Virus record (IMG/VR): IMGVR_UViG_3300005512_000001
Coordinates: 160,001-224,000 of that record
DNA from: a virus
Taxonomy: Duplodnaviria > Caudoviricetes
Direction: 5' to 3' (one strand)
DNA: 64,000 nucleotides
Part shown: piece after piece, positions 17,296 through 35,089 of the stretch
How the letters are laid out: every line of letters starts with the position of its first letter
Numbering within the stretch: the stretch's first letter is position 1
The notes under the pieces: generated by a model
Database searches by the model: none
What the model was told of the DNA's origin: nothing
Seen by the model: only the letters and a program-made list of their open reading frames with translations
Program-made: the position numbers and the translations under genes

Positions 17296-17311
17296 TAGTA
17301 TTGTAAATAAC

Positions 17312-18478: not shown

Positions 18479-18674
18479 AAAACGCAAACATGAACTTAAG
18501 CGTAAGGCGCATAGAACTGTGGTGCGTAAAGCAAGATTGGCCAAGAAGATAAAAGATTCTAAACCTAAGATGAGCGATAAAATGGGTGTTGCTCATTCTA
18601 CAGCTACTAACGCGGGCACCACAAAAATCGCTGAAGGCATTGATAAGGCAGCATGGGGTATACAAAATGGCTAA
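18453..18674 (+). CDS. Small basic hypothetical protein
   Basis: K/R-rich ORF filling the gap between coupled genes. Confidence 0.45.
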   Translation: MTTVGRSNKKRKHELKRKAHRTVVRKARLAKKIKDSKPKMSDKMGVAHSTATNAGTTKIAEGIDKAAWGIQNG

Positions 18675-19181: not shown

Positions 19182-20561
19182 ATGAAGAATAATGATGTGA
19201 TAGACGCAAAATGTAGTGTTTGCAACACCATTTCCAAAATAAAATGCGAATCATATAAGCGGACCCTAAAGCGTAGCGGTAAATATCGATGTTTATCTTG
19301 CGCAACTTCACAGGCTCTCAAAAAATCACCACGCAATACAGATAAGCTGATTGGATGGTCCAAGAGCGATGCAGGGCGAGCTGCAGCATCGCGTGTACTA
19401 AAGCAGAGGTGGGAGGATAACTACGACGAACTTTTGGGGTATATTAATGCTAATTGGAAAAACCAAGAGACTATCAACAAGCAAAAAGAAATACATGAAT
19501 TTTCCAATCGCCCTGACCTCCGTGTAAAATTTAGGAAGATATGGGCGTCAAAAGAATATCGGGAAGCTGTTAGTGATGGTGTTCGAAGATTGTGGGAAAA
19601 CCCAAAATATAGAGAAAAAATGGCTGCGTCTAGGATTAGGTATAGAGGCATTGTATCTAATATCCAGAAAATATTGTATTCATTGCTTGATGACTTGGGG
19701 ATAAAGTATTATAGAGAATATAATGGGCATAGTGATCCACAATGTAAAATCGGACCATGGACTTTTGATTGTGTAGTCCCGAGAAGCAATAAACCAGACC
19801 TATTAATAGAGTGCCAAGGCGATTATTGGCATTCTCTGTCAGAAAATATGCAGCGTGACCGGCAAAAGGCATCATATATCTCAAATAATTTGAGTGGTCG
19901 ATATGAATTGAAGTATATTTGGGAACATGAATTTTATGCGAAAGACCGAATACGAATGCTTTTGGCGTATTGGGTTGGTTTGAAGCGACATGATATTATT
20001 GACTTCAATTTTAAAGATGTTGCTATTAGAAAATGCGTAGCTAAAGATTATAAATTGTTGTTGTCTAAATACCACTATCTTGCGAATGCTGGGAGAGGAG
20101 GGATTGCTTATGGGGCATATGTGGGAGATAGACTTGCCTCTATATGTGTTTTCTCACCACTACCTAGACAGAATATTGCTAAATCACTAGGCTGTTTAGA
20201 TAAAGAGGTGCGTGATTTATCTAGATTATGTATTCACCCTAATTATCAAAAGAAAAATTTTGCTTCTTGGTTTGTGAGCCGATGTATAAAACTACTCCCA
20301 CCACAATATGCAATAGTCATCGCATATTGTGATACTACATTTGGGCATAACGGGGTTGTCTATGAAGCGTCTAATTTTAAATTAGATAAAGAAATTAGAC
20401 CCGATTATTGGTACACAAAGCCAGATGGATGGATAATGCATAAAAAGACGTTGTATGATCGTGCTGTGAAAATGGGGATTAAAGAAAGGGAATTTGCTGA
20501 ATTGCATGGATATATTAAAGTAAAGGGTGATAAGAAATATAGATATGTTTTTAAAAGATAA
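19182..20561 (+). CDS. Vsr/DUF559-type endonuclease fused to a Mom-like GNAT acetyltransferase (Hef-like homing endonuclease), copy 1
   Basis: FDCVVP..LIECQGDYWH..RD..K..YIWEHEF, then KYHYL, DLSRLCIHP, IAYCD..GHNG.VY.ASNF. Confidence 0.75.
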   Translation: MKNNDVIDAKCSVCNTISKIKCESYKRTLKRSGKYRCLSCATSQALKKSPRNTDKLIGWSKSDAGRAAASRVLKQRWEDNYDELLGYINANWKNQETINKQKEIHEFSNRPDLRVKFRKIWASKEYREAVSDGVRRLWENPKYREKMAASRIRYRGIVSNIQKILYSLLDDLGIKYYREYNGHSDPQCKIGPWTFDCVVPRSNKPDLLIECQGDYWHSLSENMQRDRQKASYISNNLSGRYELKYIWEHEFYAKDRIRMLLAYWVGLKRHDIIDFNFKDVAIRKCVAKDYKLLLSKYHYLANAGRGGIAYGAYVGDRLASICVFSPLPRQNIAKSLGCLDKEVRDLSRLCIHPNYQKKNFASWFVSRCIKLLPPQYAIVIAYCDTTFGHNGVVYEASNFKLDKEIRPDYWYTKPDGWIMHKKTLYDRAVKMGIKEREFAELHGYIKVKGDKKYRYVFKR

Positions 20562-20632
20562 CAATAATTTGATGTATTTGAAACTCAGCAGCTAATGAGT
20601 GTCAAAAAGCTCAAAGCAGAAAGGAAAATGAA

Positions 20633-21712
20633 ATGAGCAAGTATGATGTAGCAAAAGTACGCAAGAAGTTGCAGGAAAAGCAGGGTAGTCGGTTTAAGGA
20701 CCCCAATGAGTTCAAGCCGCCCCAAGCATCTGATGGGGACACGATCAAGTATCGTTTCTATGTTCTACCGCCACTTAAGAAGGGCGATGTTTGTGCTGAT
20801 GGCACGGCTAGTAGAACCATGGAATTATTCTATGTTCAGAACGGTGCTCATTGGTTGAATAACCGGACGCATGCATGTCCACGTGTGCATGATGAGGAAG
20901 AATGCCCGATTTGTTCGTTGGGGTTCGACCTAATGGGAGAGACTGACGACAAAGACCGTCGTCGTGATATTGCCAGGCAGTGGCTCCCACGCACCCAGTA
21001 CGCCGTAAATGTTTACTTCCCGAAGGATAAGGTTAATCCTGAAGAAGTTGGCGGGAAGGTTATGTGGATGAATGCGTCTAAGCAGCTTTATGACGCATGG
21101 GAAGCATGCATCATGAATGATGATGCTGGCGATCCAGATGACCCGCAAGCATTTGGCGTCTTTTTTGATGAGGAAGATGGATATCTCTTCCAACTCCAAA
21201 TCAAGAAGAAAAATAAATGGAATGATTATAGTACCTCTAAATTCCTTGCTAGCGTTGGAAAGCGTCCAATTGCAAGCAAGGGAGGCAAGCCACTGCCAGA
21301 ACGCATTGAGACTATTTTGAGCCAGCGGCACGATTTGTATACTAAGTTCCAGCCTAGGGACCCAGAGGCTCTGCAGAAGATGCGTACTGTGTTTGAGAGC
21401 GGCGAGCCTGAAGATGACAATGGTTTTGACGAGGACGACACCTCCTCTGCGAGTAAGGTTGCAGACGCTACGACGACAACTGCAACTACGAAACCTGCTA
21501 ATGAGCCTGAAGCAGTTGTTGCAGAAGAAGCCATCTCTGACGCCACTACACCTAAGACAGTCGTGGATGATGCTGTTGATGATGCTGTTGATGATGTTGA
21601 TGACGATGCCGGTGACGATGTTGTTGATGGTGACGATGCCGGTGACGATGCCGGTGATGTTGTTGAAGATGTTGAATTACAAAGTTTGCTCGAGCAGATT
21701 GAAGAAGAGTAG
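20633..21712 (+). CDS. Single-stranded DNA-binding protein (T4 gp32-like)
   Basis: RF..LPP, H...CP......CPIC zinc site, WLPR..Y.VNV, DYS.SKF, long acidic tail. Confidence 0.8.
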   Translation: MSKYDVAKVRKKLQEKQGSRFKDPNEFKPPQASDGDTIKYRFYVLPPLKKGDVCADGTASRTMELFYVQNGAHWLNNRTHACPRVHDEEECPICSLGFDLMGETDDKDRRRDIARQWLPRTQYAVNVYFPKDKVNPEEVGGKVMWMNASKQLYDAWEACIMNDDAGDPDDPQAFGVFFDEEDGYLFQLQIKKKNKWNDYSTSKFLASVGKRPIASKGGKPLPERIETILSQRHDLYTKFQPRDPEALQKMRTVFESGEPEDDNGFDEDDTSSASKVADATTTTATTKPANEPEAVVAEEAISDATTPKTVVDDAVDDAVDDVDDDAGDDVVDGDDAGDDAGDVVEDVELQSLLEQIEEE

Positions 21713-21719
21713 ACAAAAA

Positions 21720-21763
21720 CAGATACACACTGGGGCACCAATTGGTGCCCCAGTGTGTATCTG
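21720..21763. repeat. Perfect 44-bp palindrome with no spacer
   Basis: CAGATACACACTGGGGCACCAATTGGTGCCCCAGTGTGTATCTG is its own reverse complement. Confidence 0.95.
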
Positions 21764-21774
21764 GGGGATTTAAG

Positions 21775-22635
21775 ATGGAAAACATATTGTTGATTGATGG
21801 CAAAAACACTGCTTACAGGGCGCTGTTTGCTTCACGTGGGAATAGAGAATTCAGGACTAAGGGTTATCATCCATTCACAACGTGGGTGAAGCTGTCTCAT
21901 GTATGGTTGGAAAAATTTAAGCCGTCGTCTGCTCATGTTTTCTGGGATTGTCCAAAAAATGAGGTATGGCGCAAGAAGCTACTGTCTGAATATAAAGACC
22001 ATAGAGATGCTATGCCACATTATGATAATGACGTGCAGGAGCAATTACATAAGTTAATCGATGCTGCCAGTGCGATATTGTCGCATATGGGCGTCAGGCA
22101 ATATACCCGGCCGGGACAGGAAGCTGATGATTTGATTTACTCAGCATGCCGACTTTTGACGCCGACAAAATCAGATACGCGTAAATTAATAGTAATATCG
22201 AGTGATTCAGATTTCGCACAATTGCAATGGTATATGCCATATGTTTCAGTTTACGACCCACGGAAAAACAAATTTATTGACTCGCCAGAATGTAATCCCG
22301 CAGTACAAAAAGCTCTGTGTGGCGATCGAGCTGATAATATAGATGGGTTTAGAGGTATAGGGCCAGTTAAGAGCAATCAAATAGCTTCAGACCCTAAAAA
22401 ACTAATTGAATTCCTGGATTTGTCGGATGCGCGTAAATTTAAACGCAATTTAGCTTTAATAGACTTATCAATGAATCCATCAAGGTTAAATAATGAATTA
22501 TATATGTTACGAGTGTTATCTAATGATGCGGAATTTGACAAAGCTGCTATCAACCAATTGAGCATCGACCATAAAATTAGAGGTTTAATGTCTGAATACC
22601 CTAACATATCATTAGAATATAAACGGTTAAAGTAA
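21775..22635 (+). CDS. 5'-3' exonuclease / flap endonuclease (T4 RNase H-like)
   Basis: LLIDG.N..YR, WR.....EYK.HR, EADD, SSDSDF.QL, GDRADNI.G..GIG. Confidence 0.9.
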   Translation: MENILLIDGKNTAYRALFASRGNREFRTKGYHPFTTWVKLSHVWLEKFKPSSAHVFWDCPKNEVWRKKLLSEYKDHRDAMPHYDNDVQEQLHKLIDAASAILSHMGVRQYTRPGQEADDLIYSACRLLTPTKSDTRKLIVISSDSDFAQLQWYMPYVSVYDPRKNKFIDSPECNPAVQKALCGDRADNIDGFRGIGPVKSNQIASDPKKLIEFLDLSDARKFKRNLALIDLSMNPSRLNNELYMLRVLSNDAEFDKAAINQLSIDHKIRGLMSEYPNISLEYKRLK

Positions 22636-23052
22636 ATCTTTATTCTCTTTTAATAAATTAGATAATTCAATATGTTTTTCCATAAAGTTTGTTGATTGCT
22701 CTGTAATAACATCCCAATTGCTAAATTGTGACATCAACCACTCCCATTGTTCTGGATTTTTTTGTTGCAGCAACCATGCCAATCCAAATGCGCCTTTGTG
22801 GCCAGACACCTTACGCCCCCACTTGTGATGTGCTGGGCACAATGAGACGCCATTGAGTGGTTCATGTCTTAGTTGCAAAACCCATCTATCTATAATATGG
22901 TGTGCTTGTAAATTTTGGTCTGTGCCGCAGACAAAGCAGTTATTCCGTCTTATTAATAAAGACCAAGATTTGTCTGCCTTATTCCGCCAATACTTGGAAT
23001 TGGGGTTTGCTTTAGCCTTAGCCAATTTACTTATTTTTTTCTTTTTTGCCAT
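22627..23052 (-). CDS. NinG/HNH-like endonuclease
   Basis: AD..WS..IR...CFVCG....L.AHH......LR....NG..LC..HH. Confidence 0.75.
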   Translation of the reverse strand: MAKKKKISKLAKAKANPNSKYWRNKADKSWSLLIRRNNCFVCGTDQNLQAHHIIDRWVLQLRHEPLNGVSLCPAHHKWGRKVSGHKGAFGLAWLLQQKNPEQWEWLMSQFSNWDVITEQSTNFMEKHIELSNLLKENKDLL

Positions 23053-23187
23053 ATTATTATTTACATATTGTAAGTATTCAGCAAACAAATGCGATATGTG
23101 CGTTTGAGTAAATAAATTGCAGCCGAATCCATCAATATTTCGGTGGAAAGATATATAAATGGTTGCTTATTATATGAGGTTTAAATC

Positions 23188-23475
23188 ATGGGATGCGGTT
23201 GTAGAAAAAAACGTAGTAGTGCTACGGCACGTACTAGAAATGTTGTGAAATCTAAACCAGCTAAAGCCCGCACTATAGCACAACGCAAGGCTACGCGTGC
23301 GGTTTCCAATATTGGGAAACGTGTTGGGAATATTAGAAGCATAGCTATGGATGCGAAAGCTGGCTTACGATGCCCTATTTGCAAGGCCACTATGAAACGT
23401 GTCTCTAGGTCTGGACATGGAGACTTGTTGCAATGTGTCAATCCTAACTGCCGGCATATTAGTAAAAGGAAGTGA
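23188..23475 (+). CDS. Small basic Cys-containing protein
   Basis: MGCGCRKKR start, R/K-rich, CPIC...C...C; GAGG RBS. Confidence 0.6.
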   Translation: MGCGCRKKRSSATARTRNVVKSKPAKARTIAQRKATRAVSNIGKRVGNIRSIAMDAKAGLRCPICKATMKRVSRSGHGDLLQCVNPNCRHISKRK

Positions 23476-23879
23476 TAATGAAGATTAATGCGGACCAGAT
23501 TGTAACAGTTAATACATTGAGTGATATCAAAAGTGCTATTCAAGAATTTTTACCGAGCAGTACGACCGCGCCAGAGGTTCATTCGACTATTAAAGCAGAG
23601 GGCAAGACTTACAAATTGTCTGCGCCGACATCATGTGGTTATAGAGATATGCTGATTGAGGGTTTTGGTATAGTCAAGAAAAGATTGGAAGCTAAGAACC
23701 CATCCCAAAACGCTGAACTGGGAATAGACCCGGTAAGTGTTGATGGGCATATGTGGCTTGACGAACTTATTGGCAGAAGATTAGGTGGCAAACGAGATGG
23801 TGTGAGAGTCAGATGGGATGTCGTAGAAGGCACATTTTATTTTGACCCGTTTTCAGGAAAGCTGACTAAATGTTCATAA
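23472..23879 (+). CDS. Hypothetical protein
   Basis: Coupled ORF. Confidence 0.55.
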   Translation: MIMKINADQIVTVNTLSDIKSAIQEFLPSSTTAPEVHSTIKAEGKTYKLSAPTSCGYRDMLIEGFGIVKKRLEAKNPSQNAELGIDPVSVDGHMWLDELIGRRLGGKRDGVRVRWDVVEGTFYFDPFSGKLTKCS

Positions 23880-24061
23880 CAGACACTATAATCCTAGCAT
23901 TATTTATTACCGGGTTGTGGTCGTTAATCTCAATATTAGTTAAGATACATATGACTTGGCAATACGCTTTGCGGTTTATATTGCCGATGTCCTTTTTTGT
24001 GGCTTTAGGAATGATATATTTCGGGATAATGCAATGGATAGGAAAGTTGATGCTGAGTTAA
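23870..24061 (+). CDS. Small two-helix membrane protein
   Basis: Two hydrophobic segments. Confidence 0.45.
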   Translation: MFITDTIILALFITGLWSLISILVKIHMTWQYALRFILPMSFFVALGMIYFGIMQWIGKLMLS

Positions 24062-24348
24062 TTCGGTATCGCAGCATGCGAGAATGGGTTCCAGCTGTTG
24101 GGGATGTCATTATCAAGCATGGATGGATATTTAGAACAAAATGGTTTGGTGTGATAAATTTTGTTCGGCCAGATGGCACGTTGGATATTATAAAGGATGG
24201 AATGTTGAGATTGCTAGTCACGACAGCGCCAGATTCTGTTCGCAAGAAGGCAATAACTATAGTTCCAGATGTTATACGAGCTGCTGCTGCTGGTAGTTAT
24301 GCTGTAATGCAATATGACCCTAATAATTCGGTGGTGTGGTATGTTTGA
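24034..24348 (+). CDS. Hypothetical protein
   Basis: ORF with start re-assigned to MDRKV. Confidence 0.5.
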   Translation: MDRKVDAELIRYRSMREWVPAVGDVIIKHGWIFRTKWFGVINFVRPDGTLDIIKDGMLRLLVTTAPDSVRKKAITIVPDVIRAAAAGSYAVMQYDPNNSVVWYV

Positions 24349-24874
24349 AGTCCCATCATTATTGCCGTACCCAGTGATTCGCGACCTGAATGAATGCCCG
24401 GAAATTCATGGCATATTTTGTTATATCATAGATAAATATGCTCCTGGTATATCTGCAGTTATTAAATTAGATGCTAATGATGCTGGGATTATTGTTGGAA
24501 ATTGGGATGGTGAAAATGCAAGCCCTAAAAATAAAGATGAATGGGAGAAGGTTGAGCATTTTTTAAATCATACAGCATATGATTTAATTAAAATTATGAG
24601 GCATATACGTTTACAGCAAGCAGAATTCTTCATTTCTGATAATGGTCGTCTCGTTGATGTCCAATTGTCGTTGAATAAATTTATTGGCCCTGGGATGTTA
24701 AAAGATTTATTCGCCCCGGTAGTGAATATACAAAATTCAACAGAACTAGCTGTTTTAGACCCCGATAAAATTGCTGAACTTAATAACGGTGAAAGGCGAT
24801 TTATTTTAAAGCCCAGTAAAAGCAGGCATTATATGCATGATAACAAAGTATTGCCACTCTATGCGTGTATTTGA
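24341..24874 (+). CDS. Hypothetical protein
   Basis: ORF with start re-assigned to MFEV. Confidence 0.55.
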   Translation: MFEVPSLLPYPVIRDLNECPEIHGIFCYIIDKYAPGISAVIKLDANDAGIIVGNWDGENASPKNKDEWEKVEHFLNHTAYDLIKIMRHIRLQQAEFFISDNGRLVDVQLSLNKFIGPGMLKDLFAPVVNIQNSTELAVLDPDKIAELNNGERRFILKPSKSRHYMHDNKVLPLYACI

Positions 24875-25422
24875 TAGATATGTTTATTATACTTGTAGGA
24901 TATCCTGGGGCTGGTAAATCGACATTTGCTGACCTAATTAAATCTAATGATGAGTCGGTCGATATTATGAGGCCAAGCGATTGGTACCCAAATAATATCG
25001 AAGAGATGCCAAGCAAAGCACAGATGGACTATAAAATAGCGTGTTGGGAGCATGCTATAGATAAAACATCTAACTGGTTGGGATCGAATTCACCGAGTAG
25101 CGTTGTTATCTTGGACACATGTGGGGCATCTGCTAAATCACTTACAACACTATTCGCTATGGCCGCATTGCATAAGCATAAGACCATATGTATGATTGTG
25201 CATACGCCGATGTCAATATGTGCATCGAGGTCTGACCCTGGCGTGGTTCAAAAATATACTAATAAATTAAAAGTCGCAATCCCAGAGTATAAAGAAAAAT
25301 GTGATGAGATTATCGTGGTTCGTTATGACTCGCTAGATAAATGGCAAGAATTAAGCAACGAATTATGCCGAAAAATATTAGCACCACAAAACAACCAAAA
25401 GCCAGCTGGCACGAACCAATAA
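24865..25422 (+). CDS. P-loop kinase (AAA_33 / polynucleotide-kinase-like)
   Basis: ILVGYPGAGKST, VILD, TP..IC..R. Confidence 0.7.
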   Translation: MYLIDMFIILVGYPGAGKSTFADLIKSNDESVDIMRPSDWYPNNIEEMPSKAQMDYKIACWEHAIDKTSNWLGSNSPSSVVILDTCGASAKSLTTLFAMAALHKHKTICMIVHTPMSICASRSDPGVVQKYTNKLKVAIPEYKEKCDEIIVVRYDSLDKWQELSNELCRKILAPQNNQKPAGTNQ

Positions 25423-26243: not shown

Positions 26244-26272
26244 AGTGTTGCATCAGCTCGGCTATCTCACAT

Positions 26273-26614
26273 TCATATCTCATTCCATTCACCTTCACCT
26301 GGCGGTGGGCGGTCGTTATTTGGAACTGTAGAATTATTTGATTGCAGGTCTTTTAAGTCTTCTACAGCATCATCGATATTACAGCACGCGATAGTTTCGG
26401 TAAGCTCCAGCCATTCTTGTACACCAAATTTCCCGCCAGCTAGTCTAGCTCCGCCCGTTTTAGCTGTTAGTGATGATATAGCTATATTTGGATTTTCTGT
26501 GACCGCATCATTGAGTGACACTGCGGACTTATTTTTCTCTAGGTTGTTTGGTAGCTGCACGAAGCCGTTAATTATTGGTAACTGTCGTGTTATAGTGATT
26601 GTTTCGAATGACAT
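26273..26614 (-). CDS. Hypothetical protein
   Basis: GAGG RBS and late-type motif CAAAAATAGTATA upstream on the minus strand. Confidence 0.55.
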   Translation of the reverse strand: MSFETITITRQLPIINGFVQLPNNLEKNKSAVSLNDAVTENPNIAISSLTAKTGGARLAGGKFGVQEWLELTETIACCNIDDAVEDLKDLQSNNSTVPNNDRPPPGEGEWNEI

Positions 26615-26654
26615 AATTAATCCTCTTTATACTATTTTTGCTAGTAGATAATAT

Positions 26655-27299
26655 ATGTCTAAAGTATTTATTATTGGCGGCGGCCCCAGCCTGGGGGGAT
26701 TTAATTTTAAGTCCTTAGATGGACATGACTGCATAACTATCAATAAATCGTTATTTAATGTGCCAAACCCAAAATATTTTATTACTATTGACCATAGCTT
26801 TTTGAATAAAACAAAAGGTGTTAGACGACAAATAGCTGAGTCGAGTGCTAATTCATTTTTTGTTTCGAACTATGCTGGTGGGACTCTAAAGGATGATGAT
26901 GGCAGGATATTATGCACGAAGACCAAGCGACATTATAATCTGGCCGGGTTCGATGTAATTATCAAAAGCAAGAAGCATGCTGGAATTGGATTCGATTGGG
27001 GCGATTTTAGGAATGGCAATTGTAGCGGTTATTGTGCGATGCAATTAGCGGTATTATTGAGATATGATGAAATTTATATGCTTGGGATAGATTTAGCAAC
27101 TAGCGGCAATAAAACGCATTATCACAATGGTTATGGCACAAGACTTGACAAAATGGTGTCGTCATTGGACGGATATTTTAAATATTTTAGGGATGGTGTT
27201 AAAGTAGCTCTGAACAACAATATTAAGATATTTTCTTGTTCTAGCATAAGCCGGTTAAATGGGATTATACCATTTGTTGATTCTTCAACGGTTTTATAA
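26655..27299 (+). CDS. DUF115/MptE-like (sialyltransferase-like) transferase
   Basis: IIGGGPSL, I.IN, SGY.A.QLA..L...EIY.LG.D, HYH. Confidence 0.6.
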   Translation: MSKVFIIGGGPSLGGFNFKSLDGHDCITINKSLFNVPNPKYFITIDHSFLNKTKGVRRQIAESSANSFFVSNYAGGTLKDDDGRILCTKTKRHYNLAGFDVIIKSKKHAGIGFDWGDFRNGNCSGYCAMQLAVLLRYDEIYMLGIDLATSGNKTHYHNGYGTRLDKMVSSLDGYFKYFRDGVKVALNNNIKIFSCSSISRLNGIIPFVDSSTVL

Positions 27300-28638
27300 A
27301 GTCATTGAAGAACTCATCTACTTGTTCAACTGCACGGCCCACTAAGATGTCGTTTTGATATTCGCTAATGTCGATGTCTTTTAGCTCTTTCATCGCCGAG
27401 AGTTCCTTTATCAATTCATCGCCAGAATAATTCAATGAGCATTGTCGTAGCTTCTCATGCAATTCTTGTCGGTCAGCTCCACGTTTGACGGCAGCCATTA
27501 GAATTTTTTCGACAGTCATGAGTGCGATTTCGGTGTTGAGATTGTCAGCGATGGCTGTGTGATTTACTACCAGACCACCAAATATTTTTATCATTGTGTT
27601 CAATATGCCATCGACCGATAAGAAGATTTCTGGCAATACTAATCTGCGGGCACTAGAATCATCTAGTGAGCGTTCCAACCATTGTTCTGATGCTGTAATT
27701 AAAGCGGTTGTTGATAACCCAATGGCAAATTTTGCAATACCGCATACTCGTTCGCAATATAGCGGGTTCTTTTTGTATGGCATTGCAGATGAACCAACTT
27801 GTTTAGCTCCAAATCCTTCGGCTAATTCTTTCTTACCGGCTAACAGCCGTATGTCTGTGGCTATTTTTTGACATACTGCGGCCAGTGACGACATCAGACA
27901 TACTAAAATAGAATCGTCTATTCTTGGGTAGACTTGACCAGTAACAGCATACTTGTTTTGCCCAAATCCCATCATATTGCAAATTAGAGTATCCAGCGAC
28001 TTGACTTTGTCGTGATTGCCGTCGAATAATTCCAAATATGATGCTTGCGTTCCTGTCGCCCCTTTTACTCCGCGTGCCTTTAGATTAAGATATTTATGAT
28101 TAATCTCAGACAGAACTAGATATAGGTCATATGCCCACAGCGAGGCTCGTTTGCCAACTGTTGTTGGTTGTGCTGGTTGGAAATGTGTTAGCCCCAGTGT
28201 CGCTACTGACTTATGGTTGTTGGCAAATTCGCCAATATTTACAATTAATGATTTTAATTTTGTGATGATTAGAGACAACGATGTTTTAATTCGCATTGAA
28301 TCAGCATTGTCTACCACGAATTGGCTCGTGGCACCTAGATGGATGATTCCACGCGCAGATGGTGCTTGGTCGCCAAACGCCTTGATATGTGCCATTACAT
28401 CATGATGTAATTCTTTTTCATACTCTTCTGCACGCCCCATATCAGCATCTTTCAGAGCAGACTCTAGTTCATTTAATTGTTTGTTTGTAATAGATAACCC
28501 CAATTGCGATTGTGCGCGTGCTAAATTGCACCACAACTCTCTCCATAAATTGAATTTATATTCATCGCTCCATATATGTGCCATTTCTGGTGATGCACTT
28601 CTGCCGACTAGTGGTGACTGATATATGCTCATAGACAT
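27265..28638 (-). CDS. purB: Adenylosuccinate lyase
   Basis: YQSPL..R.AS.EM, HHDVMAH, IHLGATSQFV.DN, THFQPAQPTTVGKR, GSSAMPYKKNP, QWLERSLDDS. Confidence 0.95.
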   Translation of the reverse strand: MSMSIYQSPLVGRSASPEMAHIWSDEYKFNLWRELWCNLARAQSQLGLSITNKQLNELESALKDADMGRAEEYEKELHHDVMAHIKAFGDQAPSARGIIHLGATSQFVVDNADSMRIKTSLSLIITKLKSLIVNIGEFANNHKSVATLGLTHFQPAQPTTVGKRASLWAYDLYLVLSEINHKYLNLKARGVKGATGTQASYLELFDGNHDKVKSLDTLICNMMGFGQNKYAVTGQVYPRIDDSILVCLMSSLAAVCQKIATDIRLLAGKKELAEGFGAKQVGSSAMPYKKNPLYCERVCGIAKFAIGLSTTALITASEQWLERSLDDSSARRLVLPEIFLSVDGILNTMIKIFGGLVVNHTAIADNLNTEIALMTVEKILMAAVKRGADRQELHEKLRQCSLNYSGDELIKELSAMKELKDIDISEYQNDILVGRAVEQVDEFFNDFIKPLKNQQMV

Positions 28639-28657
28639 CAAATACACTATACTTGTT

Positions 28658-30163
28658 TTATAAGTGCAGGATAAATCGTTTCTTTTGAGACCCATGCACT
28701 TTTGTATATCCGAATTTTTCGGCGAATTCTGATTCTTTCATCCCCATTTTAATAGCGCGATTATATAAAGTTTTTTTATGCATGACCCATTTATCTTGAG
28801 AGACATACCAATAGCTAGGCGGGATTGTTTTATCTAGTTTAAAGTTGCATGCTAGATACAACGACCCCGTGTGGTTAAATGTAGTATCAGTATATGCGAT
28901 AATGCATTTGTATTTCTTGGGCAATTTGTTTATGCATTTAGATATTAACCATGACCCAAAATTTTTCTTCTGGTATTTGGGGTGTATGCAGAATCTTGAC
29001 AATTCTCTTACGCACGACTTGTTATAATTAGCGATTTGGATGTTTTGTCTAACCAATGGCGAGAAAATGCATATAGCAATTAATTTGTTCTCCAAATATG
29101 CCCCGTAAGCGATTCCACCACGTCCTGCGGTCGCTAGATAGTGGTATTTTGCAAGTAGTGGTGTGTATTCGTTCGATTTTGATTTATGTATTGCAACATC
29201 ATCGAAACTAAAGCTTATAAGTTTGGTATTGCTTATATTGAGCCAATATTCTATAGTATTAATAATCTTGTTGTGTTGGTAAAATTCGTGTTCCCATAAG
29301 TATTTAAGCTCATATTCGGATGCCAAATAATTTTTCACATATTCTTGCTTTCTGATGTCTCTTAATTTCGTCTTTGTATTATTGTGCCAATAATCGCCTT
29401 GGCATTCAATTAGTAATGTTTTGCTATTGGGTCTTGGTATAACACAATCGAATGACCATGGCCCTATTCTACATTGTGGGTCATCAGGCTTGTCATTATA
29501 TTCTCTGAAGTATGTTATGTTTAAATCATCTAATATTGAATATAACATACTTTGAATATTGGATACTTTTGGTGTATTGGCGAGCCTAATAGCTTGTTTT
29601 TCTAAATATTCAGTTGTTTTATGCGACTTTATTTGTTTCTCTATGAATCCTGGTTTTCTTATAGCTTTGTAATACTTGCTTCTGTGTTCTGGTGACTTCC
29701 ATAAATGGTTTGATATGCTCCTTAACTTTTCTATTTGCGATGCATTAATTGTGGCCATTTTTTGTTTGAATTCTGGGTCTAGCCATAACTTCCGCAATGA
29801 TTCGGTTATTTTTTGTCCGAATTCTGGGTCTTGCCACAATTTTTTGGATTTTTCGCTTATTTTCTTTTTAGTTGCAGGCGAGTGTGGTTGTTTATTTTTT
29901 GGCACTTTTTTATTGGCCCTATAAGATTGGTCCTGCCATACCCTCTTCATGTTGTCAGATTGCTTTGTTTTGTATTTGTCGCTTTTATTAACACAGGCCC
30001 TACATACATAAATTGGGTTCTTTTTGCGCAGCAATTTATATCCTTTATAATTCTGTTGTGTAATTTTATTGCATTTAGAGCATTGAATAATAACACTGTC
30101 TTTATTTTTTGCAGTTTCCTTTGTGATTCCATATTTTTTCTTGGTTTTGTCCCACAATATCAT
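28658..30163 (-). CDS. Vsr/DUF559 nuclease-Mom-like acetyltransferase fusion, copy 2
   Basis: FDCVIP..IECQGDYWH..LWEHEF; KYHYL, ELSRFCIHP, IAYTD..HTG.LY.A.NF; N-terminal W.DPEF repeats. Confidence 0.75.
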   Translation of the reverse strand: MILWDKTKKKYGITKETAKNKDSVIIQCSKCNKITQQNYKGYKLLRKKNPIYVCRACVNKSDKYKTKQSDNMKRVWQDQSYRANKKVPKNKQPHSPATKKKISEKSKKLWQDPEFGQKITESLRKLWLDPEFKQKMATINASQIEKLRSISNHLWKSPEHRSKYYKAIRKPGFIEKQIKSHKTTEYLEKQAIRLANTPKVSNIQSMLYSILDDLNITYFREYNDKPDDPQCRIGPWSFDCVIPRPNSKTLLIECQGDYWHNNTKTKLRDIRKQEYVKNYLASEYELKYLWEHEFYQHNKIINTIEYWLNISNTKLISFSFDDVAIHKSKSNEYTPLLAKYHYLATAGRGGIAYGAYLENKLIAICIFSPLVRQNIQIANYNKSCVRELSRFCIHPKYQKKNFGSWLISKCINKLPKKYKCIIAYTDTTFNHTGSLYLACNFKLDKTIPPSYWYVSQDKWVMHKKTLYNRAIKMGMKESEFAEKFGYTKVHGSQKKRFILHL

Positions 30164-30192
30164 ATGTGAATTCCTTTATTGAAAGGTTCGCA

Positions 30193-30235
30193 TTATATTA
30201 TTTTTGAATACTGGCACACATCAAAAATAATATAA
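30193..30235. promoter_or_regulatory. Back-to-back identical putative late-promoter motifs (TCAAAAATAATATAA on each strand)
   Basis: 15-bp inverted repeat at 30193-30207 and 30221-30235 between divergent genes. Confidence 0.6.
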
Positions 30236-30265
30236 GGTGTTTGTCCTGAGTAAAGGAGAAAGAAA

Positions 30266-30673
30266 ATGGCAAGTCAGCCACTAAACACACAGATTCAAGT
30301 TTTCCGCAGGGTTAGGGCGCAACGCGAACCGCAGCGTCATGACTCAATCAAGAACATCACGGGCAAGCTTCGTCGGCTAATCTTAATTGCGCCGGGTGAA
30401 GAAGTAAGGACAGCAGTCGTATCGCGTGATACTAGCGTTACCGACTTCTCGACCTACATGGGAGAGGCAAGCGCAGTGGCACAAAGAGGTCATCCAATTG
30501 TTGTTGGGGTCCAGGCGGTCAAGGACTTCAGCGTGGTCCAGCAAATTTCTGGCGTCGATTTCCCAGTCGAAATCGGTGGCGACAAATTTGTTCAGGAAAC
30601 TGCAGCTACCGTTGGTGGCGACGTACATCAGGACGCTCGCGACACTACCGGTGGTACAACCAACAGGCTGTAA
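30266..30673 (+). CDS. Probable highly expressed virion protein
   Basis: AAGGAG RBS, late-type motif upstream, terminator downstream. Confidence 0.55.
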   Translation: MASQPLNTQIQVFRRVRAQREPQRHDSIKNITGKLRRLILIAPGEEVRTAVVSRDTSVTDFSTYMGEASAVAQRGHPIVVGVQAVKDFSVVQQISGVDFPVEIGGDKFVQETAATVGGDVHQDARDTTGGTTNRL

Positions 30674-30704
30674 GCCTGTTAAAATTAAACTTGACAAACA
30701 CCAA

Positions 30705-30740
30705 GAAGGGCCAGGAAACTGGCCCTTCGTTTTGTATTTT
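30705..30740 (+). terminator. Rho-independent terminator
   Basis: GAAGGGCCAG-GAAA-CTGGCCCTTC stem-loop followed by GTTTTGTATTTT. Confidence 0.8.
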
Positions 30741-30762
30741 AATTAACCGATAGAAATGATTA

Positions 30763-32307
30763 ATGGCTAATTTAGAGCGGAAAATTTGGCGTAATTCTGA
30801 ATGGTTATATGACCATTATTATAATAAAAAATTATCATATTCGCAGATGTCAAATATTGTTGGGGTTTCGAAAAGAGCTATGATTTTCGCATGTAAACAA
30901 TTTGGGATTAAATCTAGAAGTACATCAGAATCGTTATCTGCACCTATGCCTACCCGAAAAGATTTAGAGAAGCTATATTGTACTCAACAATTAAGCCAAT
31001 CCCAAATATCTAAAATTTATGGGGTTTCACAATCAGTAGTCCATAAATGGATGAAAAAATATGGCATTAAAAGTAGAGACCATAAAAATGCTACCCAGAT
31101 AAGATTGGGATATGGTAAGAAACCATTATGCGAATGGGCAAATTCGCAATGGTTGATAGAACAATATGAAAGTAAATCTGTATCGGAGATAGCATCGGGT
31201 GTTGGCTGGTCAACTACTTTTGTGCATGACACGATGGCGGAGCTTGGCCTTGAAATGAGGTCCAACTCTGAAGCCATGCTGATGCAATCTAATAAGATAT
31301 CAAAGAGGATGCGTGATAAATGGTGTGACCCTGAATATCGCAAATTTATGCTCGCTAAAATGGCAGCATATCCGAAAGTATCTTCATTGCAGACAAAATT
31401 ATATGGCATATTAGATGAGATGGGAATTGAATACTATAGAGAACATAATGATAAAGAAGACGATGTGCAATGTGTAATTGGGTATTGGCATTTTGATTGT
31501 GTGATTCCGAAGCATGATGCTAAAAATCTTATAATTGAATGTAATGGTGACTATTGGCATTCGCTGCCAGAAGTAGTGGCAAATGACCGCAGAAAATCGA
31601 ATTATATTTATAAATACCAGAATGATGCTTATGACTTAAAATATTTATGGGAACATGATTTCGCTAATATAGATAGAGTGAAACAATTAATTAGATATTG
31701 GGTTGGATTGCATAAACTAGATGTTATTAAGTTCCAATTTAATATGGTAAATATACGTCAAATTAACTATGTTGAGGCTATTAAACTGCTTGGTGCCTAT
31801 CACTATATAGGCACAGCCAGAAAAAATTCCAAAAATTATGGTGCATTCCTTGGAGATGAATTGATTGCAGTTGGGTCGTTTGGTCCAATCACTAGAAAAC
31901 AATCAGCAGATAGACTTGAATTAAAATATGACGAATTAATAGAATATACCAGACTATGTATTCACCCAAGCTATCAGAAGAAGAACTTTGCGACCTGGTT
32001 GACTGCTAAATTTATTAAAAAGATTCGCAACGATTTTCAAAATGCAAAAGCTATAATTGCATTTGCAGATTTGTCGCACAACCATGTTGGTACCATATAC
32101 AAGGCCGGAAATTGGGAGTTCAATGGTGTGGTGCCCCCCAGTTATTGGTATCTTGATGTTGATGGTTTTGTTTGGCACAAGAAAACTGTTTATAATAAAG
32201 CTGTTAAATCAGATATGAAAGAATCTGAATTTGCATGCCAGAATGAGTTATCAAAAATCTATGGCAAGGAAAAATATCGATATATTTATTGGTTGCGACT
32301 GTATTAG
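30763..32307 (+). CDS. Vsr/DUF559 nuclease-Mom-like acetyltransferase fusion, copy 3 (three HTH repeats at N-terminus)
   Basis: HTH repeats; FDCVIP..IECNGDYWH..LWEHDF; YHYI, EYTRLCIHP, IAFAD..HVGTIYKAGNW. Confidence 0.75.
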   Translation: MANLERKIWRNSEWLYDHYYNKKLSYSQMSNIVGVSKRAMIFACKQFGIKSRSTSESLSAPMPTRKDLEKLYCTQQLSQSQISKIYGVSQSVVHKWMKKYGIKSRDHKNATQIRLGYGKKPLCEWANSQWLIEQYESKSVSEIASGVGWSTTFVHDTMAELGLEMRSNSEAMLMQSNKISKRMRDKWCDPEYRKFMLAKMAAYPKVSSLQTKLYGILDEMGIEYYREHNDKEDDVQCVIGYWHFDCVIPKHDAKNLIIECNGDYWHSLPEVVANDRRKSNYIYKYQNDAYDLKYLWEHDFANIDRVKQLIRYWVGLHKLDVIKFQFNMVNIRQINYVEAIKLLGAYHYIGTARKNSKNYGAFLGDELIAVGSFGPITRKQSADRLELKYDELIEYTRLCIHPSYQKKNFATWLTAKFIKKIRNDFQNAKAIIAFADLSHNHVGTIYKAGNWEFNGVVPPSYWYLDVDGFVWHKKTVYNKAVKSDMKESEFACQNELSKIYGKEKYRYIYWLRLY

Positions 32308-32345
32308 GATTTCTTCAAATATATTTACAGAATTGGAGAACAGAT

Positions 32346-32912
32346 ATGCCTAATAGAGTACCATTTACAGCCTATTTCAAGATTGTTCCGGAGCGTGGCA
32401 GCGGAAAGAGATTCGAGATTCAGCGGAGTCGTGAACGATTTGCCCGTTTAGTCTGGAATGATTTAAATACGAACCTGGAAAATGCTATCCCCGGTGCTGG
32501 AACTGGACTAGGAACGACTGTTGGTGCCAATTTCACAGTCCCTGGCGGCTCAATACATTGGGGCTTGGCTGCTAGTGATAGTTCGTTGTCAAGCAATATG
32601 GGTGCTGTTGCGGTAAAACCTCAGTTCGGCGAGTCACCAGATACTCTGACGGTGGTGGGATTCTATGAAGGCTCTAATGTTATTCCGTATAGTGAAAAAC
32701 AATTAATAAGCGGCGGTAGAGTATGGAATGGTCCGGCTACTGGCACACCCGCCTACACTATTAGCACTGAGCCAAATGCAGCTAATAGAAGTGCTGCTAG
32801 AGCATTAAAGACGGCATTAGAAGGTGCCATAGAGTCAGTTGAAGTCGAGATGATTAAACTGGAAATAAACGGCGTTAAATATGGTCGTGGTGGATTACAT
32901 TTTCCGTTATAA
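32346..32912 (+). CDS. Probable virion protein
   Basis: GGAG RBS, late-type motif at 32315, G/T/S-rich. Confidence 0.5.
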   Translation: MPNRVPFTAYFKIVPERGSGKRFEIQRSRERFARLVWNDLNTNLENAIPGAGTGLGTTVGANFTVPGGSIHWGLAASDSSLSSNMGAVAVKPQFGESPDTLTVVGFYEGSNVIPYSEKQLISGGRVWNGPATGTPAYTISTEPNAANRSAARALKTALEGAIESVEVEMIKLEINGVKYGRGGLHFPL

Positions 32913-32918
32913 TCTAAC

Positions 32919-33356
32919 ATGAAACTACCGATGCTATATGAGACAATGGGCAGCGCAGACCCTGTGGTTTTTCGGGCTGGGTCGTCAGAAGGTATTCTTC
33001 TTCATTTTGGAACTATGGCCGCAGCACAAAAAGCATCTATAGGACGTGATATTCATCGTGGAATTTTGAAATTAAATAGCCCGGCAACTATGGTGGATTC
33101 TGGACGGTCTCATAATATTAATCCAGTTGCATTAGCACAAGATATTGTTGCAGGAAACAATCCAGGCATAACAGCGGACCTTATTCCTGTTATTAAGAAG
33201 ATTTTAGATAATAAGGGCATTAAGGCTGCTTTTGAAGGAATCCGAGATGCACTGAAAAATCATGAGTATGATGGTGTTGCGTATGTTAATACTAATGAGG
33301 ACCCTGGGTCAATTTCATATATCGCATTAGATGGTAATCAATTCATGAAAGGATAA
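32919..33356 (+). CDS. ADP-ribosyltransferase-like protein (ART-PolyVal-like)
   Basis: HFGT..AA, L.L..P, L....YDG..Y.N..E..GS.SYI.L...Q. Confidence 0.5.
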   Translation: MKLPMLYETMGSADPVVFRAGSSEGILLHFGTMAAAQKASIGRDIHRGILKLNSPATMVDSGRSHNINPVALAQDIVAGNNPGITADLIPVIKKILDNKGIKAAFEGIRDALKNHEYDGVAYVNTNEDPGSISYIALDGNQFMKG

Positions 33357-33357
33357 G

Positions 33358-33579
33358 ATGATGGCGTTACCAGCATTTGGTTTTGGAAGAGGTTTTGGCT
33401 TTAAGAGAGGTTTAGGTTTGGGTAGAGGCTTCGGTGGCGGTAGAGGCCAAGGCGTGAAAGATGGCACTGGCGGTGGTGTGGGGCGAGGTACTGGCAGACG
33501 TGCACAGTCTCTTGCTAAGAAGCAAGAGCGGGCAGCACGCAGAGCAACATGCCCACGCCGGAATACACCTGAGAAATAA
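33358..33579 (+). CDS. Small Gly/Arg-rich basic protein
   Basis: GRG/GFG repeats; directly follows the previous ORF. Confidence 0.45.
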   Translation: MMALPAFGFGRGFGFKRGLGLGRGFGGGRGQGVKDGTGGGVGRGTGRRAQSLAKKQERAARRATCPRRNTPEK

Positions 33580-33625
33580 GAGCATTGCAAGACGGCAATA
33601 TATGTTGACGCATACCCTGTGATGT

Positions 33626-35089
33626 TTAAAGATGTTTAATGAACCTTAGGACTTCTAGGCCCTTTATTTTATGCAGACCGTTTGTATTTGCATAATCTTG
33701 TTCTTTCATTCTCAGCCGCTTAGCTTGATCCCATACTGATTTTTTGTAATATCTTGTACCATTAGAATCAATATACCAGTAAGACGGTTTTGTCCTCCCG
33801 TCTTCTTGCCACCCAGCTGCTTTATAAACGGTGCCGCTGTGTCCAGCCCCTATGTCTGAAAATGCTATTAATGTTTTGATATGCTTTGGAATAAATTTCA
33901 TAGATTTCGCTATAAACCACGATGCGAAATTCTTTTTATGATATTCAGGGTGGATGCATAACCGTTGCAACTCTAATATTTCTTTGTGTTCTAAATTCAA
34001 TCTAGCGGCCGTCTGTAATCTTGTGATGCCTGTATAATTTATTGCCGCTACTAATTTGTTGTCCAGAAATGCACCAATACCCAACCCCGCTCTACCTTTA
34101 GATAAGTAATGATATAGATTAAAGAAATCATTTATCACGCTTTTACGGATGATTTTAACTTCAACATGTTTGAGGTCAAATTGTTTTGATATATCCTCTT
34201 GATGTAGGACATTCTTTAAGATATGTCTAATACTATTTAAGCCATAAAACTGGTGTTCGTAAATATAATATAATTCCCATTTATCAGACAAATATTTGTC
34301 GAAATATGTCTTCTTTTGTTTGTCTCTAGTTATTCTAGATGGGCGTGAATGCCAATATTCTCCTTGGCATTCGATTAAAATATTGCGATCTTTATAGGAA
34401 AAACCGACATCAAATGACCATGGTCCTAGGCTTATTGGTTGTGCATCGATTCCCATGCTTTGCAGGGAATTAATAATTATGTTATCTAATATGGATATAG
34501 GTGACAAGTTAGATATAGCTGTAGCTTGTTTTTGTCTATATTGTTTTGACTTCCACATCCTCTTTGAATTGGCACTTACTTTTTGTTTGAATTCATCTGA
34601 ACTGGTTGCTAGGTTTATTCCTTGAGTTGTTTTAATAAAGTATTCTGAATCTTTCCACAACTTCACTGCCAGTTCTGATTGCAATTTTTTACGTGCTGGT
34701 GTCCAACTTTTCTTTAATGATTCAGATATCTTCTTCTTTTTTACGTCGGTTGTGGATTTTTTTATGCCAGCAATGATACTATCACGATTCTTTTCCCAAT
34801 TCTTTTTAGCTGATTCTGATAATTTTTGCTTTCTGTTGCTTTGTATCCTTTTCATTATTTCTGAATGTTTTGTCCTATTGGCTTTATTCGACCAGTGGTT
34901 TTTAGAACGTTGCGATATATGGTCGGATTTTAGTAACATTCCTTTACTTATGCTTCTGGTTTTAATGCCAAATTTCTTTACATAATATCGGATTGTAGCT
35001 GGAGACACTGAGCATCGCTTTGCTATGTCTCTGATACTCATTATTGAATATGCGGTTTGTAACTCATCTTTATTTTTGTGATTTATCAT
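33626..35089 (-). CDS. Vsr/DUF559 nuclease-Mom-like acetyltransferase fusion, copy 4
   Basis: HTH plus repeats; FDVGF..IECQGEYWH..IYEHQF; YHYL, ELQRLCIHP, IAFSD..HSGTVYKAAGW. Confidence 0.75.
   Translation of the reverse strand: MINHKNKDELQTAYSIMSIRDIAKRCSVSPATIRYYVKKFGIKTRSISKGMLLKSDHISQRSKNHWSNKANRTKHSEIMKRIQSNRKQKLSESAKKNWEKNRDSIIAGIKKSTTDVKKKKISESLKKSWTPARKKLQSELAVKLWKDSEYFIKTTQGINLATSSDEFKQKVSANSKRMWKSKQYRQKQATAISNLSPISILDNIIINSLQSMGIDAQPISLGPWSFDVGFSYKDRNILIECQGEYWHSRPSRITRDKQKKTYFDKYLSDKWELYYIYEHQFYGLNSIRHILKNVLHQEDISKQFDLKHVEVKIIRKSVINDFFNLYHYLSKGRAGLGIGAFLDNKLVAAINYTGITRLQTAARLNLEHKEILELQRLCIHPEYHKKNFASWFIAKSMKFIPKHIKTLIAFSDIGAGHSGTVYKAAGWQEDGRTKPSYWYIDSNGTRYYKKSVWDQAKRLRMKEQDYANTNGLHKIKGLEVLRFIKHL

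Follow-up and report, generated by a model that had tools for sequence, protein, structure and literature searches.

What are genes that fuse a nuclease to a relative of the phage Mu protein Mom, and how did one phage come to carry several of them? The question arises from a 64,000-nucleotide stretch (the window) of a 341,434-bp jumbo phage genome with direct terminal repeats (DTR), in which the initial annotation described four ORFs of one architecture, all between genes and in both orientations. Translations, alignment and Pfam confirmed that architecture and the quoted motifs, which align in register: for the nuclease FD...IE.(Q/N)G.YWH...D..K, and for the C-terminal domain YHY, R(L/F)CIHP and D..(H).G..Y.A. 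The likeness is far beyond chance, because all four proteins score 54–89 bits against Pfam Mom and BLASTP between paralogues gives E values of 1e-42 to 1e-160. The intergenic placement also held, with two genes on each strand. The count did not: a PF25680 profile search of the genome gave eight matches above the cut-off, and the whole genome holds eight nuclease–Mom fusion genes, four of them fully inside the window (Table 1). All eight reading frames are intact, without frameshifts.

Table 1. Fusion genes in the window and the conserved genes that flank them
Feature	Position in window	Strand	Details
UvsY-like recombination mediator, conserved flank of copy 1	18586..19167	+	phrog_231; 76% identical in relatives
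Copy 1, Hef-like/Mom, 459 aa	19182..20561	+	Zn ribbon C11..C14, C37..C40; helical W..P.. region; Vsr-like nuclease ~155-272; Mom ~273-459
gp32-like ssDNA-binding protein, conserved flank of copy 1, candidate target-bearing gene	20633..21712	+	
Adenylosuccinate lyase (PurB) homologue, conserved flank of copy 2	27265..28695	-	PF00206, PF10397
Copy 2, Hef-like/Mom, 501 aa	28658..30163	-	Zn ribbon; three W..P(E)(F/H) repeats; nuclease; Mom
Conserved 135-aa ORF, bracketed by copies 2 and 3	30266..30673	+	79-80% identical in relatives
Copy 3, Hef-like/Mom, 514 aa	30763..32307	+	tandem HTH modules; nuclease; Mom
Copy 4, Hef-like/Mom, 487 aa	33626..35089	-	N-terminal HTH (MerR/HTH_24-like); basic helical region; nuclease; Mom
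Fifth copy, start only, runs past window end	63956..64000	+	genome 223956-225593, 545 aa

In sequence as in fold, the nuclease comes nearest to I-Bth0305I, a homing endonuclease of the EDxHD family, to which phage Hef also belongs (PMC3239194). It matches the I-Bth0305I structure 3r3p by phmmer (E 8e-4) and by profile (E 1e-4). With an AF2 model of copy 1 residues 150–272 (pLDDT 91.5), the top Foldseek matches are 3r3p_A/B (E 1.7e-4, TM 0.63/0.78, rmsd 3.3), followed by Vsr (1cw0, TMq 0.69, and 1vsr) and also the endonuclease-like protein 3hrl, in keeping with the Vsr-like nuclease first proposed. All eight copies share FD, E, G, YWH and D..K without variation. In a register set by HMMER alignment to 3r3p, the D of FD, E of IE.QG, H of YWH and D of D..K are equivalents of I-Bth0305I D196, the acidic residue in I-E-x-N-G, H213 and D222; all four are invariant or at least 90% conserved in 85 homologues. 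The predicted structure thus shows the I-Bth0305I/Vsr fold, and the Asp, Glu, His and Asp of its active site are present. At the position of the first EDxHD Glu (I-Bth0305I E170/Vsr E25), seven of the eight copies seem to have Gln: MAFFT sets the Glu of T-K-P-E-L in copy 278692 opposite the Gln of V-S-x-I-Q in the others, in a register that is uncertain because this region is described as weakly conserved (PMC3239194).

The C-terminal domain is a Mom-family GNAT, as had been suggested. Copies 1–4 score 75.4, 54.5, 89.1 and 73.4 bits against PF25680 (Pfam Mom; cut-off 27.1), copy 3, at 89 bits, being the best in the window. For copy 1, Foldseek (E 2.6e-10, 202 columns) and the structure comparison by VIA (Z 14.4, rmsd 3.1, 159 residues, model 123–305 on chain 37–221; next GNAT Z 12.4) both place Mu Mom (8bv8) first, and the fold match includes the inserted helices between the last strands. 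H58, Y59, R111, N121, S124 (as Ser or Thr), D149, G156 and Y159 are retained in the alignment of the four window copies, and among 85 close homologues the catalysis-relevant Mom residues are invariant or nearly so except for R151. Mutating these residues abolishes or cripples Mu Mom, where R151 is essential (PMC13219725). The fusion copies have T, S, G or H instead of that arginine, and six stand-alone phage Mom-like proteins have I, M, S, E or G there, so R151 is, by this alignment, Mu-specific rather than family-defining. Model and alignment together show a domain with the predicted fold of Mu Mom and the residues that Mom activity needs.

The initial annotation called this domain an acetyltransferase and made its reading depend on an acyl-CoA pocket. 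That picture is outdated: Mu Mom transfers glycine from Gly-tRNAGly, not from acyl-CoA (PMC13219725), and in the fusion proteins, as in Mom, K-K-N-F-A-S occupies the place of the GNAT Q/RxxGxG/A CoA loop. A missing CoA pocket therefore refutes nothing, Mom itself being without the CoA loop and using Gly-tRNA. The phage's set of 44 tRNAs includes tRNA-Gly(GCC) and tRNA-Gly(UCC), neither of which adjoins a fusion gene.

In front of this nuclease–Mom core stands an interchangeable DNA-reading module, made either of a Zn ribbon with helical repeats or of tandem HTHs: copies 1 and 2 have CxxC...CxxC Zn ribbons and copies 3 and 4 HTH modules, and the number of W..P(E/D)(Y/F) repeats differs between the window copies. 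The core itself, as the sequence comparison shows, evolved as a single unit, with nuclease and Mom identities tracking each other in all 28 pairs. Core identity is 21–72% across the eight copies and 31–60% among the four in the window, where copy 4 is the most diverged; on the tree the eight are not monophyletic and interleave with homologues from other phages. The earlier idea of a gene amplified four times in 16 kb is thus not borne out. Judged by divergence and branching, the copies are old lineages rather than local or recent amplifications.

Comparison with relatives shows that the fusion genes are clean intergenic insertions beside conserved replication and nucleotide-metabolism genes. 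Three collinear relatives (L002, L003 and L004), all from one metagenome and all element-less, lack the four genes at the same intergenic sites (two or three relatives per site), and the junctions are tight. Copy 1, whose cassette is bounded by the direct repeat CAGCAGCTAA, lies between the uvsY-like gene and gp32 and is absent there in L003 and L004. Copy 2 immediately precedes purB, in the same orientation, and is absent between purB and the 135-aa ORF in all three relatives; alignments of the PurB ORF to relatives start at residue 18–22, and translation of purB probably begins some 20 codons into the listed ORF. Copy 3, which is inserted between a terminator hairpin (30705–30728) and a conserved promoter-like box belonging to the following gene, is likewise absent in all three; the variable spacer that holds copy 4 has no such gene in L002 and L004. 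No Mom domain was found anywhere in the 82-kb relative, and homologues in other phage contigs occupy unrelated loci, often antiparallel to their neighbours. The initial annotation had raised the possibility of fixed, syntenic core genes; because they are absent from the same sites in three collinear relatives, they are not. The four window copies carry the signature of free-standing homing genes, namely a set site next to conserved genes that is filled in some genomes and empty in others.

On balance, we consider it fairly probable that the fusion genes are free-standing Hef-like/EDxHD homing endonuclease genes whose nuclease has become permanently coupled to a Mom-type GNAT. During a mixed infection, the N-terminal module would direct cleavage within or close to the conserved neighbour gene of an element-less phage, and repair of the break from the element-bearing genome would copy the gene across. 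The Mom domain, to judge from its residues, is probably catalytically active and, tethered to the same DNA sites, would, if it works as Mu Mom does, modify a nearby adenine at N6 with an aminoacyl group taken from a tRNA. Its most economical role would be to mark the carrier's own sites and so spare them from the fused nuclease, a logic like that of type IIG enzymes. It could also contribute to general anti-restriction, a role for which eight separate modifiers seem redundant. A stronger version, which we hold only tentatively and think unlikely, is a self-immunising homing element in which, in each of the eight proteins, a shared N-terminal reader brings two activities, the nuclease and a tRNA-dependent aminoacyl-transferase for adenine, to a single long site. 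If so, genomes packaged already marked would be spared while unmarked competitors would be cut and converted, and this would be the first homing endonuclease to guard its host genome with an epigenetic mark instead of a disrupted or varied target. U5 Hef is said, in work by Sandegren and colleagues from 2005, to have also cut its own phage's DNA, which speaks against self-immunity in that enzyme. Finally, the phage may replace adenine with 2-aminoadenine (it has a PurZ-like gene as well as PurB), in which case the Mom domain must act on Z, or only on foreign, A-containing DNA.

Two rival readings are each less likely. A single-chain restriction–modification weapon, in which Mom momylates the phage genome broadly and the REase-fold nuclease degrades unmodified host or superinfecting-phage DNA, is exactly what the accessible text of PMC7824862 proposes for jumbo-phage REase–Mom fusions. 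It would suit the two intact active sites and the size of the family in big phage contigs (460 representatives at E<=1e-30, the best 150 of these 460 all having the full core). We nevertheless doubt it here: the nuclease is nearest to a proven homing endonuclease and the Hef lineage, the long, variable sequence-reading N-termini are typical of homing endonucleases, presence and absence are precise at intergenic sites beside conserved genes, and eight diverged copies, each nearer to foreign copies than to one another, fit selfish spread better than a single defence function.

The other reading keeps the homing endonuclease and gives up the modification, so that the Mom-like domain would serve the nuclease in DNA binding, base flipping or dimerisation. 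Mu Mom forms a tight dimer, and its HTH-like DNA-binding insertion has been modelled lying in the major groove of DNA (PMC13219725); I-Bth0305I is also dimeric (PMC3239194), and the coevolution of nuclease and Mom domain as one unit would be in line with such a service. Relatives matter here, and Hef-type proteins are also a precedent for the favoured homing reading. Hef34 of Campylobacter phage NCTC12673, annotated as similar to U5 Hef, aligns over nuclease and GNAT (28% identity, E 9e-13), and its C-terminal domain is Mom-related (hhalign probability 97%), which substantiates the kinship with Hef-like phage endonucleases first suggested. Unlike the full Mom-type tail of the fusion copies here, the Campylobacter Hef-type tail falls below the Pfam Mom cut-off, with HL for HY and V-x-G-G-A-S-K for P-R-N-S-E-S. 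The domain persists in this tail despite the loss of Y59 and the N-x-E-S motif and a D149 that is not conserved, so across the wider family it may have a role other than catalysis. For the phage copies we think such a role improbable: outside R151, the catalytic residues are invariant or nearly so in them and in the 85 close homologues, which would be unexpected of a purely structural domain.

Very unlikely, in our view, is that these are domesticated nucleases, beneficial to the phage (in marker exclusion or processing of its own DNA, for example) and now fixed in its lineage, with relatives having lost or never had them: the eight intact frames and a comparison resting on only three relatives from one metagenome would allow it, but four independent clean presence/absence differences within 16 kb, the scatter of the copies among those of other phages and the different contexts of homologues elsewhere argue otherwise.

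The fusions resemble several known systems. Type IIG/IIL single-chain restriction–modification enzymes such as MmeI also unite cutting and base modification under a shared target reader in one polypeptide. Those are cellular defence genes that pair a SAM-dependent methyltransferase with a PD-(D/E)xK nuclease of another lineage; the fusion proteins matched no methyltransferase family in Pfam or NCBIfam, and the likeness is one of analogy only, without homology. Mu Mom (PF25680; PDB 8bv8; PMC13219725) shares the fold, the helical insertion, the key residues and the missing canonical CoA-binding GxG loop. It is, however, a stand-alone 231-aa late protein under Com/Dam control that modifies the whole genome in a loose motif, whereas the domain here lacks R151 and is joined to both a nuclease and a sequence reader; a com-like gene was not seen.

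I-Bth0305I (PDB 3r3p; PMC3239194), prototype of the EDxHD family, has the I-E-x-N/Q-G-x-Y-W-H and D..K motifs and modular N-terminal DNA-binding repeats, but is intron-encoded and stops right after the nuclease, without a GNAT domain. The layout is shared by Hef of the T4-like phage U5, which cleaves nrdB (PMC2988022), and the Hef-like proteins of Campylobacter, Dickeya and other myoviruses (PMC2988022; PMC3296691): these are also free-standing, lie between conserved genes, occur several per genome and run from a Zn-ribbon or other DNA-binding N-terminus through a Vsr-like nuclease to a GNAT-like C-terminal domain. Dickeya F-LimIII has Vsr/DUF559 matches; BLASTP found no similarity between it and copy 1.

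The family is not wholly new, as the initial annotation had anticipated. REase–Mom fusions of group 2 jumbo phages were described by Iyer et al. (2021, Viruses 13:63; PMC7824862), likewise with a Mom-family GNAT and a restriction-endonuclease-fold DNase in one polypeptide of a phage genome >200 kb, and the idea of modifying self and cutting others was already proposed for them there. The kind of fusion is thus known, and the genes here are further members. In its accessible text, that account treats the fusions as restriction-like conflict systems; we instead place the nuclease in the Hef/EDxHD homing lineage and add to that text presence/absence polymorphism at four loci, which points to selfish mobility.

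This jumbo-phage genome of 341,434 bp, which carries direct terminal repeats and whose bases 160001–224000 form the window, encodes eight nuclease–Mom fusion proteins, and their genes are very probably mobile Hef-like homing endonuclease genes. The initial annotation had described four of them; open reading frame (ORF) listing and translation place all four where it reported them, and the observation is both real and richer than it described. Searching the whole genome with Pfam Mom (PF25680) gave eight matches that exceed the cut-off, and the open frames that hold them are 460–549 amino acids long; ORF listing together with BLASTP confirmed eight paralogues (Table). The copies share a conserved core of roughly 305 residues, comprising a Vsr-like nuclease and a Mom domain, C-terminal to DNA-reading modules that are unlike among the copies: some have CxxC...CxxC zinc ribbons together with W..P(E/D)(Y/F) helical repeats, one to three in number, and others have tandem HTH modules. 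An NCBIfam search of the fusion proteins returned no match above any curated cut-off, and megablast of window 17–37 kb against phage records returned no match.

Table. Coordinates of the nuclease–Mom paralogues, the pieces of a split gene and a conserved box
Feature	Position	Strand	Remarks
Paralogue	genome 59054–60679	−	
Paralogue, copy 1	genome 179182–180561	+	
Paralogue, copy 2	genome 188658–190163	−	
Paralogue, copy 3	genome 190763–192307	+	
Paralogue, copy 4	genome 193626–195089	−	
Paralogue	genome 223956–225593	+	first 45 bases are the window's last bases
Paralogue	genome 239608–241101	+	
Paralogue	genome 278692–280200	−	additional C-terminal zinc ribbons
ORF	window 35189–35905		249-aa gene residues 1–107 plus Hint/mini-intein-like domain (C-F-G-P-G-T-K-I-L ... 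T-P-N-H-P ... I-L-V-S-stop)
ORF	window 35949–36995		HTH plus TnsA-like PD-(D/E)xK nuclease (PF08722, 32 bits)
ORF	window 36904–37659		249-aa gene residues 108–249 behind an unrelated leader of ~109 aa
T-C-A-A-A-T-A-T-A..T-A-T-A-G box	window 32305–32345, 35150–35188		matching places in L002, L003 and L004

The nuclease half resembles a known homing endonuclease. Its Pfam matches, to REase_MTES_1575, were sub-threshold, and phmmer (E 8e-4) and a profile search (E 1e-4) matched it to PDB 3r3p, the catalytic domain of I-Bth0305I. Because GNAT matches fill the structure-search lists of the whole-core model, we modelled and searched this half alone; the AlphaFold model (pLDDT 91.5) has 3r3p as its best Foldseek match (E 1.7e-4, TM 0.63/0.78) and also recovers the Vsr structures 1cw0 and 1vsr and the endonuclease-like protein 3hrl. 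The active site is intact: all eight copies have the same residues at the positions that align with I-Bth0305I D196, the acidic residue of I-E-x-N-G, H213 and D222, and across 85 homologues these positions are invariant or at least 90% conserved. The first motif Glu aligns as Gln in seven of the eight, at a point where the alignment register is uncertain. The EDxHD family, as defined by Taylor et al. in 2011, explicitly takes in phage 'Hef type' homing endonucleases (PMC3239194).

Evidence of mobility comes from related genomes. Two viral-contig scans, with gp32 and a conserved 135-aa ORF as queries, gave three distinct relatives, L002, L003 and L004, from one metagenome (contigs IMGVR_UViG_3300035698_018700, _019395 and _020047; L001 and L004 are one contig), all collinear with window 13–46 kb at 40–87% amino-acid identity and all lacking the four window genes at the matching sites. 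Where copy 1 would stand, gp32 follows the uvsY-like gene after ~35 bp; at the copy 2 site, 44 bp separates purB from the 135-aa ORF in two relatives; at the copy 3 site, ~100 bp leads from the 135-aa ORF to its neighbour; and the copy 4 site is a spacer unlike in every genome. The junctions are clean. Copy 1 follows the stop codon of uvsY and precedes the ribosome-binding site of gp32, with a 10-bp direct repeat flanking it, and copy 3 is bounded by a terminator hairpin on one side and by a conserved promoter-like box on the other. Because the relatives lack all four genes, the junctions are clean and no Mom domain occurs in the 82-kb relative, these are not the fixed, syntenic core genes that the initial annotation had named as the finding that would count against it.

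The surrounding spacers hold further variation. L002 has ~450 bp extra between purB and the 135-aa ORF (L002:5770–6218) and ~1.5 kb extra after an intact 249-aa gene (L002:8366–9845), neither present in the window or the other relatives, so these intergenic sites also take up other cargo. Adjoining copy 4, the variable spacer holds a short Gly/Arg-rich ORF with repeated G-F-G-R-G and G-L-G-R-G units (window 33358–33600), which unrelated small ORFs replace in the relatives. In the window and all relatives, a conserved box approximating T-C-A-A-A-T-A-T-A..T-A-T-A-G precedes several gene starts by 15–25 bp; it may be a promoter of the phage late type, with copy 3 just upstream of one. Promoter and terminator scans showed no enrichment over shuffles, and Rfam (gathering threshold) and ARAGORN found nothing in the window, with no tRNA-Gly or intron signal adjoining the genes.

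One nearby gene is split, and another may be in pieces. The 249-aa gene, intact in relatives (L004:11411–12160, L002:7616–8365; weak SU10-adaptor match), is split at window 35189–37659 into three ORFs in three different frames, with no Rfam intron match at the split. Its TnsA-like nuclease ORF and copy 3 both match phrog_8446, phrog_9759 and phrog_12058, and BLASTP between their N-terminal modules was not significant (E 0.27). The match of a 398-aa ORF (window 17282–18478) to the family A DNA polymerase model is confined to the model's C-terminal third (profile 248–376 of 381); because relatives carry a 393-aa counterpart, this polymerase may be in pieces throughout the phage group.

Core identity among the eight copies ranges from 21 to 72%, and from pair to pair the nuclease identity rises and falls with the Mom identity, so that the two domains co-evolve and travel together while N-termini are swapped. 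In a FastTree of 87 cores, with homologues picked by similarity to copy 1 and the root on the most divergent copy, the eight are not monophyletic; several have a foreign sister, with support of 0.91–0.95 for two, and among them copy 179182 pairs with a foreign protein at 0.95. The tree shows interleaving with foreign copies and no direction. This divergence and non-monophyly led us to reject recent local amplification, and with it the proposal that the element had been amplified four times. The family is also large: a word-index search gave 530 homologues, the top 120 of which (43–61% identity) all have PF25680 with varied N-terminal domains, many on contigs of 100–360 kb. A profile search run exhaustively over 1.84 billion cluster representatives gave 7,397 matches at E<=1e-3, of which 460 reach E<=1e-30, and the best 150 all span the entire nuclease–Mom core in one stretch. 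Two homologues that we examined, in other phage contigs, occupy unrelated loci and run antiparallel to the adjacent genes; one of these contigs has a second Mom-domain gene within 4 kb.

The C-terminal domain is of Mom type, as the initial annotation had proposed from motifs. The four window copies score 54–89 bits against Pfam Mom (cut-off 27.1), this half matches PHROG 1384 'Mom-like DNA modification protein', and a model of copy 1 residues 155–459 (pLDDT 91.6) has Mu Mom 8bv8 as its top match both by Foldseek (E 2.6e-10) and, independently, by VIA (Z 14.4, rmsd 3.1, 159 residues), with generic GNATs next. Here too the active site is intact. Aligned with Mu Mom and six stand-alone phage Mom-like proteins, all four window copies keep H58, Y59, R111, N121, S124 (as Ser or Thr), D149, G156 and Y159 (Mu Mom numbering); mutation of H58, Y59, R111, S124, D149 or Y159 abolishes or cripples Mom, and R151 is likewise essential in Mu Mom (2026 study, PMC13219725). 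R151 is missing from the copies, which says little because stand-alone homologues do not conserve it either. Mom draws glycine from Gly-tRNAGly, not from an acyl-CoA (PMC13219725), and the copies, like Mom, lack the GNAT Q/RxxGxG/A loop, so a missing acyl-CoA pocket, which the initial annotation had named as grounds for refutation, no longer counts against the domain. An acyl-CoA acetyltransferase reading was set aside, given the replaced CoA loop and weak Acetyltransf_1 matches, of which only that of the 28658 ORF exceeds the cut-off (27.7 versus 20.7 bits).

Across the genome, ARAGORN predicts 44 tRNA genes, 41 of them in one region of ~30 kb (genome 305849–335210), including tRNA-Gly(GCC), tRNA-Gly(UCC) and one predicted tRNA-Ile(UAU); the two tRNA-Gly genes, at 310 and 320 kb in the cluster, adjoin no copy, and none of these tRNA genes lies beside a Mom-domain gene. 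The phage also encodes PurB (adenylosuccinate lyase; window 27265–28695) and a PurA-family ORF with confirmed G-S-S-G-K-G and N-F-I-N motifs (genome 136256–137569, ~22 kb upstream of the window). If the genome has 2-aminoadenine in place of adenine, the substrate of both the Mom domain and the nuclease would change.

We envision that, during co-infection, the nuclease would cleave empty alleles site-specifically, the cut allele would be repaired by recombination with the gene copied across, and the Mom domain, if catalytically active, would spare the carrier genome. The kept residues tilt us slightly towards an active modifier; self-immunity conferred by its activity is a more doubtful proposition. 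Of the three main rivals, one is a restriction-like weapon, proposed by Iyer et al. (2021, PMC7824862), in which momylation guards phage DNA and the nuclease attacks host or superinfecting DNA; against it stand the filled and empty sites and the I-Bth0305I-like nuclease. A second holds that the Mom domain is catalytically silent and serves to bind DNA or to form dimers; for the wider family, the degenerate Hef-type tails lend this reading plausibility. Domestication, the third, is to be weighed against presence and absence at four loci.

Free-standing homing endonucleases have their target in a neighbouring gene, where insertion does not destroy it, and because the target stays intact the carrier's escape from cutting is only partly understood. 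A homing nuclease with a Mom-type modifier fused to it suggests an answer to this carrier-protection problem that can be tested, and one phage with eight natural variants that have swapped their DNA readers, together with four sites matched between filled and empty genomes, makes a good test set from nature. A compact adenine hypermodifier that is site-directed and whose readers can be exchanged could also serve as a tool.

The work is confirmation and refinement rather than discovery, because the architecture and the cut-and-modify idea, central to the initial annotation's partly correct interpretation, are already in print, the latter in Iyer et al. (2021, PMC7824862). By tblastn against phage records, the genes show 25–28% identity to 'Hef-like homing endonuclease' genes of Campylobacter myoviruses, and copy 1 aligns over both nuclease and GNAT (E 9e-13) with NCTC12673 Hef34, whose annotation notes a similarity to U5 Hef. 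Experiments have shown U5 Hef (ABI48935) to be an endonuclease with nrdB as its target (PMC2988022); its sequence was not among the best 120 homologues of Hef34, and Dickeya F-LimIII ('Hef-like') had no significant BLASTP similarity to copy 1. The Hef34 tail is not detected by Pfam Mom, and a profile of 32 Hef34-like tails matches a stand-alone Mom-like profile (97% probability, E 1e-10, 156 columns). Hef-type tails have lost Y59 and the N-x-E-S motif, and the D149 position is not conserved. Our literature search found no paper tying the Hef name to Mom. 'Hef-like homing endonucleases' (2005 onward) and 'REase–Mom fusions' (2021) appear to be one family under two names, whose GNAT tail comes in two forms, one Mom-type and one diverged Hef-type.
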